A DNA stretch of 64,000 bases from NCBI RefSeq assembly GCF_003334765.1, contig NZ_QOWT01000007.1. One strand, written 5' to 3'. How positions within the stretch are numbered: the stretch's first letter is position 1; each line of letters opens with the position of its first letter. The stretch is from Escherichia coli (GTDB lineage Bacteria > Pseudomonadota > Gammaproteobacteria > Enterobacterales > Enterobacteriaceae). The position numbers and the translations under genes are program-made. Below are positions 3,475 to 47,062 of this stretch, piece after piece. The notes below the pieces were generated by a model, which had not been told where the DNA came from, ran no database searches, and was given only the letters and a program-made list of their open reading frames with translations.

Positions 3475-3753
3475 CGAAAACAATCCCGTGGTAGCAAAGC
3501 GGGCATTTTAGCTGACCGAAAGAGAAAAGCAAACGTTTGCCACATCCTCATCTAAATATTTAAATGAGATAAATGCACTTTTTTATATAACTTTTGGTAT
3601 TTTTCTGCTTAAAATCCATGCCATTTGTTCATTAACAGCTGAGAATTTGACCCAGGAAAGCATAACTCGATACCCGTCATAGTTCATGAAGTTGCCACTG
3701 CGCGATGAAGTATGACGAGTATGAAAGAGTGATGCGGATACAAAGGAGTAACT

Positions 3754-23879: not shown

Positions 23880-24226
23880 AATAAATAGCTGACTTATGGA
23901 TGTGCTGGGGATTCTATGTATTTAGCACCGGGTTTGCCATTACTTTTCCTTTTTTTGACTTAATTAGCCTCTGTTTGAGCTGATCTGCCGCTAGATCTTC
24001 ATTTTTTTTGTATTTTTATGCGATTCATTGAATTTCAGCCAGGATTGCAGCTTTACATCGACAATATCTGGATTCTCGAGTATGCAAAATTTTATCTCTA
24101 TGATTTTTATAATTAAAACATATTTTGTGTATAAAAATCATTCGGGTCGGATTGCTGCGAAAGAAATGATACACTAGCGCGTCAAAGTAAGTGCGTTATC
24201 AGTATTCGGGTAGCTGTTGAGCCTGG

Positions 24227-24238
24227 GGCGGTAGCGTG
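24227..24238 (+). promoter_or_regulatory. ops element GGCGGTAGCGTG (within a JUMPstart-type leader) upstream of waaQ
   Basis: Exact 12-nt ops sequence about 50 bp upstream of the waaQ start, followed by a T-run; RfaH-dependent antitermination site for the waaQ operon. Confidence 0.8.
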
Positions 24239-30392: not shown

Positions 30393-30555
30393 TACTGATA
30401 ATCTATACTCTAAATAATTCGAGTTGCAGGACAAAAAGCCAGTGGCGTTTTGAGGAACGCTTGCGTTGGCCCTGAAATGCCGAGTAACTCGCCGATGCAG
30501 CACATGCAACTTGAAGTATAACGAGTATATAAAGTAATGATATAAGGATAGCCTT

Positions 30556-35673: not shown

Positions 35674-36630
35674 TCAGGAATTGATTTTATTAAATACCGT
35701 TTCTGCAGTCAGATGAGCAAGATCTTTATCTGGTGCCCTACAAACCACCTGATTCTTCCCATATCCGCCAATTAATCCCGGATCGGTTGGTCCATAAACC
35801 GTGATATTCGGTCGATCCAGTGCTGCAGTTAAATGACTTAACCCAGTGTCTACCGATACCACGAATTTCGCTCCGGCCAGCACACGGGCAACACCTTCCA
35901 GACTCATCTTCGGCAATACTTCAACATAAGCAAATCCTTCCGCCAGTCGTTTCGCCCGTTTTTCCTCATGCGGCGCACCCCACGGAAGTTTAATGCGAAT
36001 CCCTGAATCTGCCAGTAAACCAATCAATTCTCGCCAGTGTTCTTCCGGCCAGTGTTTATCATCACGGGTCGTCGCATGAAGAAATACGGCATATTCGCCA
36101 GCATCTGTAGGCAGGTTCGTCAGAAAATGCTGTGCGATAGCATAATCGCCCTGGGTTTGCGGTTTGCTATAGCCCAGACTTTTGGCAAAAAGTTCGCGGA
36201 TGCGTTCTACGGCGTGCTGCTGTTTTGCAATATGATGTTTACGATTGTAAAACAGGCTGGCTAAAGGTTCGCGAGCGGTTTGCCAGTCCATTCCATGCTT
36301 TACGCCATGCGCCAGACGCGTCACCAGCGCCGCGCTTTTTACCAGCCCCTGAGCATCGATAACTGCGTCATAGTTCTCTGCTTGTAGCGCTTCACGAAAC
36401 GCTTTGCGTTCAGCTTTTATGGGGGCCGAGAACCAGGCTTTACGCCAGCGACGTATTGCCACAGGAATAACTCGCTCAACGGCGGCGTGCCAGGAAGGAA
36501 TCTGTGCGAACCCTTCTTCCACCACCCAGTCAAACTTAATCCCTGGGATTGCCTGCTGGGCATCAGTGAGTGCGGGCAACGTATGGAGAACATCGCCCAT
36601 CGACGATGTTTTAACGATCAAAACCCGCAT
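35674..36630 (-). CDS. waaC: LPS heptosyltransferase I (GT9)
   Basis: 318-aa ORF MRVLIVKTSSMGDVLHTLPALTDAQQAIPGIKFDWVVEEGF... Confidence 0.95.
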   Translation of the reverse strand: MRVLIVKTSSMGDVLHTLPALTDAQQAIPGIKFDWVVEEGFAQIPSWHAAVERVIPVAIRRWRKAWFSAPIKAERKAFREALQAENYDAVIDAQGLVKSAALVTRLAHGVKHGMDWQTAREPLASLFYNRKHHIAKQQHAVERIRELFAKSLGYSKPQTQGDYAIAQHFLTNLPTDAGEYAVFLHATTRDDKHWPEEHWRELIGLLADSGIRIKLPWGAPHEEKRAKRLAEGFAYVEVLPKMSLEGVARVLAGAKFVVSVDTGLSHLTAALDRPNITVYGPTDPGLIGGYGKNQVVCRAPDKDLAHLTAETVFNKINS

Positions 36631-36633
36631 CCG

Positions 36634-37680
36634 TCAGGCTTCCTCTTGTAACAATAGAGAGTTGAGTTCTTCCAGCACGCGCTGGGGAGTAATGTCGATC
36701 AAGCTCTGGTGATAACCTTCTGCGGCGTCGCCTTTGCGTACTTTGTGATAGCCGGTAATCAGGCGGATCACGCGCGCTTTATGGGATAGCGGCGGTGTGA
36801 AGTCCGGGCTACTCGGACCATACAGGGCAACCAGCGGACGATTGAGCGCCGCCGCAACGTGCATCAGGCCAGAATCGTTAGTGACAATGGCTTTACAGGC
36901 TGCAATCAGGATAACCGCTTGATCAAGCTGTGTTTCCCCCGCCAGGTTCCGGCACCATGCCTGCTGCTCGGTATTTAAAGCGGCAAGAATCTCATTGCCC
37001 GCTTCATGATCTTTCGCCGAGCCAAACAGAACCACTTGATAACCTTCATCAATCAGTTGCTTTGCCAGTTCCGCATAGTGGTAGTGTGGCCAGCGTTTTG
37101 CCGGACCAAACTCCGCACCCGGGCAAAAACCAATCATTGGACGTTCTGATGAAAGCGAAAATTGATTACAGGTATATGATTTTTCACCTTCGCTCACCTG
37201 CAACTGCGGCCATAACAATGGCTGCGGCAGATCTTGTGCGGTACGCATAATACCTTTGTCATAGGCCAGCGCCACATAGCGTTCCACCATCAGCGGCCAG
37301 GCTTCTTTATCCAGCACACGCACATCGTTGAGTAAACCGTAGCGCATTTCGCCGCGCCAGCCGGTGCGATGAGGAATACCCGCGAAGAAAGGCACTAATG
37401 CGGATTTGAAGGAGTTGGGTAAAACGTAGGCGCGGTCGTAACGTTTTTCGCGCAGGCTATGACCCAGCTTGCGGCGTTCGCCAATTTCCAGCGCCCCGTG
37501 ACCAAGCGGCATAGGAATGGCTTCGTTAACTTCCGGCATCCGCGATAATAATGGACGGCACCATGCCGGTGCCATCACGTCGATTATCGCCTGGGGATAG
37601 CGCGCCTGGAGCGTGCGATAGAGACTTTGCGACATCATCATGTCGCCAACCCATGACGGGCCGATCACCAATATTTTCAT
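36634..37680 (-). CDS. waaF: LPS heptosyltransferase II (GT9)
   Basis: 348-aa ORF MKILVIGPSWVGDMMMSQSLYRTLQARYPQAIIDVMAPAW... Confidence 0.95.
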   Translation of the reverse strand: MKILVIGPSWVGDMMMSQSLYRTLQARYPQAIIDVMAPAWCRPLLSRMPEVNEAIPMPLGHGALEIGERRKLGHSLREKRYDRAYVLPNSFKSALVPFFAGIPHRTGWRGEMRYGLLNDVRVLDKEAWPLMVERYVALAYDKGIMRTAQDLPQPLLWPQLQVSEGEKSYTCNQFSLSSERPMIGFCPGAEFGPAKRWPHYHYAELAKQLIDEGYQVVLFGSAKDHEAGNEILAALNTEQQAWCRNLAGETQLDQAVILIAACKAIVTNDSGLMHVAAALNRPLVALYGPSSPDFTPPLSHKARVIRLITGYHKVRKGDAAEGYHQSLIDITPQRVLEELNSLLLQEEA

Positions 37681-37759
37681 TCACTTCATCCTTCAAGCTG
37701 TCTCTGCGGCGGCTGCCTGCGTTCACTCCGGTCACTTACTTTTGTAAGCTCCCGGAGAT

Positions 37760-38740
37760 TCACTTAGCTGCTGCCTTGATACCGCTCGAATGATTTTGTG
37801 AATTTACGTTGATGTCGCGATTCAGCCAGGCCATGTATTCCGTTACGCCTTCGGCAACGGTTTTGAACGGTTTGTCATAACCCGCCGCGCGCAGATTCGT
37901 CAGATCTGCCTGCGTGAATGCCTGATAGCGGCCTTTCAGTTTATCCGGGAACGGAATGTATTCGATCTGGCCTTTCTTGTGATAAGCAAGCGTTGCATCG
38001 GCTACCGCCTGGAAGGATTCCGCACGACCAGTACCGAGGTTGAAGATGCCGGAAACGCCATTTTCCAGGAACCACAGGTTTACATCTGCCACGTCGCCAA
38101 CATAGACGAAGTCGCGTTTAAAGTTCTCGCTACCTTCGAACAGCTTCGGTGATTCACCGTTATTAAGCTGGGTGTTGAGATGGAAAGCGACGCTCGCCAT
38201 GCTGCCTTTATGGCCTTCACGCGGTCCATAAACGTTGAAATAACGGAAGCCAACAATCTGTGAGTTTGCTTCCGGCAGAATTTGACGAACATATTCATCA
38301 AACAGGAATTTCGAGTAACCGTAGACGTTCAACGGTTTTTCGTACTCGCGGGATTCAATAAAGTCGGAAGTGCGACCGCCGTAAGTGGCTGCGGATGAAG
38401 CGTACAGGAACGGGATTTCACGCTCCAGGCAGTAGTGCAGCAGCTCCTTGGAGTATTGATAGTTGTTATCCATCATATACTTGCCGTCCCACTCGGTGGT
38501 GGAAGAGCACGCGCCTTCGTGGAAAATCGCTTCGACATCGCCGAACTCTTCGCCAGCCATAATCTGGATCAGGAAGTCTTCCTTATCCATATAGTCTGCG
38601 ATATTCAGGTCCACCAGGTTCACAAACTTGGTGCCGTCTTTCAGGTTGTCCACCACCAGAATATCGGTGATGCCTTTGTCATTCAGGGCTTTAACGATGT
38701 TGCTGCCGATAAAGCCCGCGCCGCCGGTAACGATGATCAT
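37760..38740 (-). CDS. hldD: ADP-L-glycero-D-manno-heptose 6-epimerase
   Basis: [26 protein letters not shown]... (Rossmann GxGxxG), 326 aa as read; the C-terminal tail after ...MAWLNRD appears longer than the canonical 310-aa protein. Confidence 0.9.
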
Positions 38741-46921: not shown

Positions 46922-47062
46922 TTTACCTGTCGTCTTTCATGATGCAGGCCGTTAGCTGCAATTAGGCCCCCAGCGACTTATTGTTATAAGCTTCTGGGGA
47001 CACTCCATTTTGCAGCCGCCCTGCAACATGAAATTTCAGGGTAAAAAAACAGGAGCTAAATT

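Follow-up and report, generated by a model that had tools for sequence, protein, structure and literature searches.

An ERIC element at the hldD-waaF junction of Escherichia coli and other Enterobacteriaceae that carries the hldD stop codon and the waaF ribosome-binding site and start codon

ERICs are 127-bp non-autonomous, MITE-like imperfect palindromes of enterobacteria. The copy described here lies between hldD and waaF in Escherichia coli. It resembles the elements described as ERIC, IRU or RU-1 (Sharples & Lloyd 1990; Hulton et al. 1991; Wilson & Sharp 2006) in its length of 127 bp, over which it is co-linear with them, in its central inverted repeat and in its long imperfect hairpin. 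Like them it is one of many dispersed copies, sits inside a transcription unit and is present in some strains and absent from others. Whereas the family has the termini TATA.../...TATA, the junction copy has AATT.../...AATG, without a recognisable TA duplication. Unlike a typical ERIC it overlaps both neighbouring open reading frames, and the spacer of the empty site is missing instead of being split. Since this site is empty in K-12, an ERIC between hldD and waaF would not appear in K-12-based ERIC lists.

ERICs at stop codons have been described in Yersinia enterocolitica. In the model proposed for them, as summarised in reviews, ribosomes unfold the element and thereby open a site in its right-hand repeat to RNase E, which lowers the level of the upstream mRNA (De Gregorio et al. 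2005; PMC2229807, PMC3184786, PMC10969869). The hldD-waaF copy shares with the Yersinia elements, as summarised, the position at the 3' end of an upstream gene with a co-transcribed gene downstream, and in both cases translating ribosomes are expected to disturb the folding of the hairpin. The likeness is thus one of geometry, i. e. of a stop codon inside the element. In contrast to the Yersinia elements as these accounts present them, the hldD-waaF copy also carries the Shine-Dalgarno (SD) sequence and the start codon of the downstream gene.

In Erwinia carotovora, ERICs (RU-1) are fused to the 3' ends of two open reading frames, the amidase ECA3499 and Tdh, ECA0168 (Delihas 2007, PMC2759123). 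As in hldD, the normal stop codon is removed and a short C-terminal tail outside the conserved domain ends at a stop codon within the repeat. However, the Erwinia fusions read the opposite ERIC strand (YTRHISSC... frame), whereas hldD reads the Wilson and Sharp strand (NSQNHSS... frame), and unlike the Erwinia fusions the hldD fusion is common to many genera. Neisseria REP2 and Borrelia IR-A (PMC3184786) have a role comparable to that of the right end of ERIC, which serves the starts of waaF, acpH and gppA; their sequences are unrelated, and they also come with a promoter, whereas none was found in the hldD-waaF ERIC. In our literature search, for which the primary ERIC surveys were known through reviews, no paper was found that ties an ERIC to hldD, rfaD or waaF. 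The element class, the 3' fusions of ERICs to open reading frames, strain-specific ERIC sites in E. coli other than K-12 and regulatory ERICs at stop codons have all been described already. The hldD-waaF copy adds a further member to this class, with two features of modest note: its conservation across genera and the use of an ERIC arm as the translation initiation region of waaF.

The window, i. e. the whole stretch of DNA that was analysed, comprises 64,000 nucleotides of the E. coli contig NZ_QOWT01000007.1. The hldD (rfaD/gmhD) reading frame lies on the minus strand at 37760..38740 and encodes 326 aa. It is followed, on the same strand and in the same operon (hldD-waaFC), by waaF (rfaF) at 36634..37680, at a distance of 79 nt (37681..37759). 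A preliminary description, made from the letters alone, had noticed an hldD frame that runs longer than expected to a stop at 37760 and had put the separation of the two genes at about 80 bp; both observations are borne out by the coordinates of the reading frames. Its account of the K-12 reference as a protein of 310 aa with almost abutting genes was correct as well: in K-12 MG1655, rfaD encodes 310 aa and waaF starts 9 nt past the rfaD stop. In the pairwise alignment, colinearity with K-12 is perfect up to ...AATCGCGAC and resumes at ATGAAAATA. Between these points the 15 nt GCATAAGAGCTCTGC of K-12 are swapped for 134 nt in the window, a net gain of 119 bp where about 120 bp had been estimated. 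K-12 thus differs in both the junction and the C-terminus of HldD. Across the junction, 501 bases were matched in the filled allele (with the extra DNA) versus 382 in the empty allele (without it). Codons 1-309 of hldD (37814..38740, minus strand) are common to K-12, with about 96% identity in the DNA, and the protein they encode is 100% identical to residues 1-309 of the crystallised K-12 enzyme (PDB 1EQ2). In RefSeq, rfaD of strain H3 is already annotated with 981 nt (WP_000587765.1) and is 100% identical to that of the window.

The extra DNA is almost certainly a full-length copy of ERIC/IRU/RU-1. Against the E. coli consensus that Wilson & Sharp gave for ERIC (IRU, RU-1), taken here from Table 1a of Delihas 2007 (PMC2759123), positions 37678..37804 (minus strand) align without a gap over 127 bp; 96 of 127 positions are identical (76%), and blastn gives an E of 5e-23 within the window. 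The orientation of this consensus corresponds to the strand that is carried by the operon mRNA. In the core at 37721..37763, which is the conserved central inverted repeat and the region of the ERIC1R/ERIC2 primers, 37 of 43 positions match, and the differences include two compensatory pairs (CTCCGG/CCGGAG versus CCCCAG/CTGGGG in the consensus). With the junction element as the query, homologous copies were found in all 5426 complete E. coli genomes, at 2-17 places per genome (median 10). The paralogues that were inspected sit in hsdM-hsdR, queA-acpH, puuR-puuC, ybhI-ybhJ, rhlB-gppA and wcaE-wcaF. As for an ERIC, the location is a transcribed intergenic site within one operon, here overlapping the ends of both reading frames, and mobility is apparent from presence and absence among strains and species.

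An Rfam scan of the element returned no family at threshold; Rfam does not contain an ERIC family. The Vibrio RNA AS5 (V_AS5) gave a sub-threshold match at 37682..37805 (minus strand) over the full length of the model, with 29.4 bits and E=3.9e-4 against a gathering threshold of 96 bits, which indicates a distant relation to the element and not membership. It also suggests that V_AS5 was built on Vibrio ERIC-like repeats. The scan of 37400..38100 for promoters and terminators found none in the element; an internal promoter or terminator was therefore rejected.

The ends of the copy are AATTCAC...GTGAATG instead of TATA. A TA precedes the left end (GTA followed by AATTC) and the duplicated TA is absent at the right end, while the orthologue in Buttiauxella retains TACAC...GTGTATG. 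A clean insertion with TA duplication was rejected, since 15 nt of the empty site have been exchanged where a split site would be expected. The missing target duplication is compatible with an old insertion that was remodelled.

Both neighbouring genes take signals from the element. After Asp309 the hldD frame runs through a linker of 9 nt, ATCAACGTA (Ile-Asn-Val; 37805..37813, minus strand), which in the alignment to K-12 takes the place of three parts of the empty allele, namely the codon for Ala310, the stop codon and the spacer. The length of this linker is constant among the filled sites of other genera, and its sequence is highly variable. The ERIC then gives hldD 14 codons and a TGA stop (37760..37762, minus strand), which comes from the conserved AGTGAATC box; the ERIC consensus, read in the same frame, gives YTQNNSSCSKAASE and is ended by the same TGA. 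At its other end, the 3' terminal inverted repeat of the ERIC gives waaF its SD AAGGA (37689..37693, minus strand), the sole SD candidate, 8 nt upstream of the ATG, together with the AT of the start codon. The waaF ATG (37678..37680, minus strand) forms the final three bases of the 127-bp alignment.

Of the 5426 complete E. coli genomes, 480 (8.8%) have the filled junction, always with at least 99% identity; about 4940 (91%) are empty. To look beyond E. coli, species-representative genomes with HldD were scanned, which gave 80 loci of at least 574 relatives; Salmonella, Yersinia and Serratia were not among them. An ERIC in the same register was found at the hldD-waaF junction of 16 of these 80 other Enterobacteriaceae loci, in at least nine genera: Citrobacter portucalensis, C. 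sedlakii and Citrobacter sp. Cu233, Klebsiella oxytoca, two Raoultella, Leclercia, Enterobacter hormaechei subsp. hoffmannii and two other Enterobacter, Pseudocitrobacter faecalis, two Phytobacter, Enterobacteriaceae UBA3516, Superficieibacter electus and Buttiauxella noackiae. Among the 76 species that were scored, 16 are filled and 60 are empty, the latter with NRDA, a stop codon and a spacer of 2-14 nt. An artefact of assembly or sequencing, or a frameshift, could in principle extend hldD falsely. This can be dismissed with near certainty, as the junction recurs in 480 independently assembled complete genomes and is homologous in 16 other species.

The copy of Citrobacter sp. Cu233 (L014:3437-3705) contains two extra inserts of about 70 and about 80 nt at mirror-image internal positions, and its distance from the EYMAWLN anchor to the waaF ATG is 302 nt versus 160 nt. 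It resembles the enlarged ERIC variants that Wilson and Sharp are said to have described.

The sense RNA of the element folds into one long hairpin of -54.7 kcal/mol (z=-7.2), whereas the fold of the antisense strand is less stable (-47.2 kcal/mol, z=-5.1). The left basal arm (helices 1-2; 37784..37803, minus strand) lies within the hldD frame in the codons for NSQNHSS. It pairs with the right basal arm (37679..37698, minus strand), which holds the waaF SD and the first two bases, A and U, of the waaF start codon; helix 2 joins 37784..37794 to 37688..37698. The apical stem-loop (37726..37757, minus strand) is the conserved central inverted repeat, and five of its ten pairs have compensatory changes across genera. 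The consensus structure of the 16 orthologues comprises 34 pairs, with 98.1% of the cells paired, and nine of the 34 pairs are changed on both sides, in 25 cells. None of 500 shuffles reached the observed values for pairing and covariation, and slid partners were paired to 28-40%. On the sense strand several pairs take the form G-U, and this speaks for a reading at the RNA level. These data show that the sense-RNA hairpin is maintained by compensatory substitutions across at least nine genera.

Thus the three options that the preliminary description had offered for the extra DNA hold together: it is a small insertion, identified by the consensus alignment as an ERIC/IRU repeat, it is a strain-specific 3' variant, found in 8.8% of the complete E. 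coli genomes, and it is an embedded element, i. e. a structured hairpin within the operon mRNA (fold z=-7.2; cross-species pairing). What had been missed was the identity as an ERIC and the overlap with the start codon and ribosome-binding site of waaF. With a blastn E of 5e-23, a fold z of -7.2 and the same junction in 480 complete genomes, the extra DNA is not a chance feature.

Is the element then more than a tolerated passenger? An ERIC could have landed at the junction or recombined into it, and been tolerated since stop codon, SD and ATG were restored, with no role in the expression of hldD or waaF; the conservation would then come from whatever keeps ERICs alike, be it a constraint on the DNA or RNA hairpin, gene conversion or recent spread. 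That 91% of the E. coli genomes and 60 of the 76 species scored lack the element, at no obvious cost, fits this explanation, as does the free decay of the tail peptide. ERICs are also reported, by Hulton as well as by Wilson and Sharp, to be highly conserved between species in general. The comparison with the flanking sequence speaks against it. The ERIC of the window is 91-96% identical to seven of the 15 copies that were measured (from Citrobacter, Enterobacter, Leclercia, Superficieibacter and Pseudocitrobacter), whereas at third codon positions the same seven species are 62-69% identical in hldD and 53-60% in waaF; for these seven of 15, the flanking synonymous sites are 37-47% diverged and the element 4-9%. 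Averaged over all pairs of the 16 orthologues, the element is 87.5% identical and its right basal arm 95.6%, versus 58-63% for flanking third positions. The ERIC at the junction is thus far more conserved than the synonymous sites that flank it. Hairpin pairs are restored by double changes, and the register is fixed: the EYMAWLN anchor is separated from the waaF ATG by 160 nt in the window and in ten of the 16 filled species, and by 161 nt in another three. Furthermore, the orthologues of other genera (91-96% identical) are far closer than the best E. coli paralogue, which does not exceed 81.6%, so that the likeness is not accounted for by gene conversion from copies in the same genome. On these grounds we consider a neutral passenger rather unlikely.

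The right basal arm, conserved as CAGCCAACGCAGAG.CAGCTTGAAGGATGAAGTG, calls for more caution. As an invention specific to waaF it was rejected, because the paralogue alignment shows TTGAAGGATGAAGTG to be a feature of the subfamily. Since this arm is shared with paralogous copies, which also fits a passenger, its conservation need not mean a waaF-specific function, and a family-wide conservation of uncertain cause weighs against a waaF-specific reading. Two paralogues use the arm in the same way. The annotated ATG of acpH, and likewise that of gppA, is placed where this ERIC arm ends, 8-10 nt downstream of an AAGGA, so that the donation of SD and ATG by this ERIC end is recurrent and not unique to waaF. 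In acpH (L006:1501-1629) the arm reads ..ttgaaggatgaagtgtat directly before the ATG, in gppA (L009:1501-1621) it reads ..atgaaggatgaagagt.

The most economical interpretation is that the hairpin couples the initiation of waaF to the translation of hldD. On free mRNA, opening of the region from -18 to +12 around the waaF AUG costs 14.8 kcal/mol in the window versus 6.5 kcal/mol in K-12. With a ribosome footprint over the left basal arm the cost falls to 3.1 kcal/mol. With the ribosome at the hldD stop it is 8.9 kcal/mol, as the basal helices can re-form, and unmasking would thus be transient. The basal helices would lock the waaF ribosome-binding site against its partner strand inside the hldD frame, and the hairpin would be opened only by ribosomes that translate the end of hldD. 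By this, waaF initiation would be tied to hldD translation, as it would be in K-12 by the 9-nt proximity of the two genes. Where hldD has an early stop, as in some species, termination would leave the ribosome right on top of the left basal arm, and the same logic would apply. Such ribosome-gated coupling, which is modelled from folding energies, seems to us plausible but finely balanced, with doubt slightly outweighing belief.

The same ribosome-driven unfolding may bare the RNase E site that is reported in the right-hand repeat of the Yersinia ERICs and thereby shift the ratio of hldD to waaF mRNA. Taken as an explanation in its own right, the element would act in mRNA decay or processing: ribosomes in the left arm would keep the hairpin from folding, RNase E would gain access to a site in the right repeat and cut between hldD and waaF, and the hldD segment would be degraded, so that the level of the ADP-heptose epimerase would be uncoupled from that of the heptosyltransferases. 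De Gregorio et al. (2005), as presented in reviews, proposed such a mechanism for ERICs that lie across or next to stop codons in Yersinia, and it would suit the hldD stop codon inside the element and a right arm that is AU/GA-rich and the most conserved part. However, a cut in the right arm would separate or damage the SD and AUG of waaF, which lie in the same 20 nt. By analogy, decay or processing fits the geometry as well as coupling does, and the two may act alongside each other and are not exclusive; as the main role of the element we regard it as possible, with the balance of probability clearly against it.

The C-terminal extension of 17 residues could itself be the selected feature and confer a new property on HldD, such as in oligomerisation, localisation or turnover. 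The tail is hydrophilic, the frame stays open through the 14 ERIC codons in nine of 17 species, and it has been suggested that new peptides may arise from fusions of ERICs to open reading frames (PMC2759123). Yet in six of the 17 species the frame ends 4-7 codons after Asp309 and in two it has lost 14 nt, the sequence past the early stops is still ERIC-like, conserved and paired, and the first three residues differ in nearly every species. Moreover, the ERIC consensus itself, when read in this frame, yields just such a tail and stop. A functional peptide tail, which we hold to be very improbable, was rejected, and since the tail is cut short or altered in eight of 17 species it is best seen as a by-product of the ERIC frame.

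Concerning the origin of the filled sites, the orthologues share changes that are absent from the E. coli paralogues, namely the termini AATTCAC...GTGAAT, which form a compensatory pair, and GCGGTAT for GTTGCAT. Together with the closeness of the orthologues, these shared site-specific changes argue for a single origin. For the same reasons, independent insertions from the ERIC pool of each genome are unlikely. Across genera, the empty sites share homology with each other (GAC GCN TAA ...), and simple deletion of filled sites cannot yield them. Filled and empty states are both found within the same genera, and the flanking genes of every filled locus are closest to those of empty congeners. 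The filled sites look like one event, yet both states are scattered over genera with flanks that follow taxonomy. For such a scatter, short-patch recombination between genera, a long-lived polymorphism or repeated targeted insertion would be needed. A more far-reaching idea is that of a cis-regulatory module, exapted long ago, in place of a passive repeat: the element would have arisen once and been held by purifying selection at the RNA level in at least nine genera as a waaF initiation region gated by hldD translation, would be kept as a polymorphism or moved by short-patch recombination, and would alter the stoichiometry of the LPS inner-core enzymes, the right repeat of the subfamily being a portable cassette of SD and ATG, of which acpH and gppA offer further examples. 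We offer this as speculation that is less likely to be right than wrong by a wide margin.

Within E. coli the element might seem to travel with the type of waaL. The waaL allele of the window occurs in 501 genomes, in 481 of them with at least 99% identity, and the number of filled junctions (480) nearly equals that of this main R2-like allele (481). The waaL locus of the window contains waaZ, rfaY, rfaJ and a GlcNAc transferase, a gene set which we take to be the R2 core type. Joint travel was rejected because the near-coincidence of counts exists inside E. coli only: in the R2-like strain ECNB21-M121, whose waaL is 98% identical, the hldD-waaF site is empty, and outside E. coli none of the filled loci has the R2-like waaL type, which is found at two empty Escherichia loci.

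The window hldD and waaF are about 96% identical to K-12 and about 4% diverged also from other E. coli, as a mosaic with blocks of 90-100% identity (35674..38740). waaC is 99.3% identical to that of another R2-like strain with an empty hldD-waaF junction, which places a recombination breakpoint near the waaF/waaC boundary. Recent import of a large foreign segment was rejected, because the flanks are Escherichia-like up to the element and because the flanking genes of each genus group with those of empty congeners.

In the 64-kb window there are four ERIC-related pieces, compared with a genome median of about 10. Besides the junction copy, one lies between waaO and rfaJ at 30404..30530 (plus strand), is 127 bp long and combines ERIC-like termini (TATACTCTAAATAATTCGAGTTGCAG ... 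CATGCAACTTGAAGTATAACGAGTATA) with an unrelated centre; perhaps it is a chimeric ERIC or belongs to a sister family. Its hairpin has -42.6 kcal/mol (z=-3.7). It is found with at least 99% identity in 478 genomes, a number of the same order as the R2-like set, and elsewhere only its termini match. A diverged ERIC, 69% identical to the consensus over 108 nt, lies between yibN and grxC at 46924..47027 (minus strand). Between gltS and xanP (3665..3725), a pair of ERIC termini of about 55-60 bp (ATACCCGTCATAGTTCATGAAG / CGATGAAGTATGACGAGTAT) without the centre looks like an internally deleted ERIC. The sole Rfam family above threshold in the window is the JUMPstart (ops-containing) RNA upstream of waaQ at 24200..24238 (plus strand). 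JUMPstart is expected for the waaQ operon.

Taken as a whole, the junction is probably best explained by an ERIC copy that couples waaF to hldD and leaves the HldD tail as a by-product. The best overall reading is that of an RNA-level coupling or processing element of the kind already described for ERIC. The scope of the finding is modest, because both the element class and this style of regulation have been described before. It explains the two lengths of E. coli RfaD/HldD in RefSeq (310 and 326 aa), of which the longer is a real allele made by a repeat and not an error; the enzyme body of HldD is unchanged in the 326-aa form. It is also a natural case in which a MITE-like repeat gives a stop codon to one gene of an essential pathway and a ribosome-binding site and start codon to the next, with a hairpin and a register that are conserved across genera far beyond neutral expectation. 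If ribosome-gated masking holds true, R2-core E. coli and several Citrobacter, Enterobacter, Klebsiella and Raoultella regulate heptosyltransferase II in a way unlike K-12, and the completeness of the LPS core and the susceptibility to phages or antibiotics could be affected.
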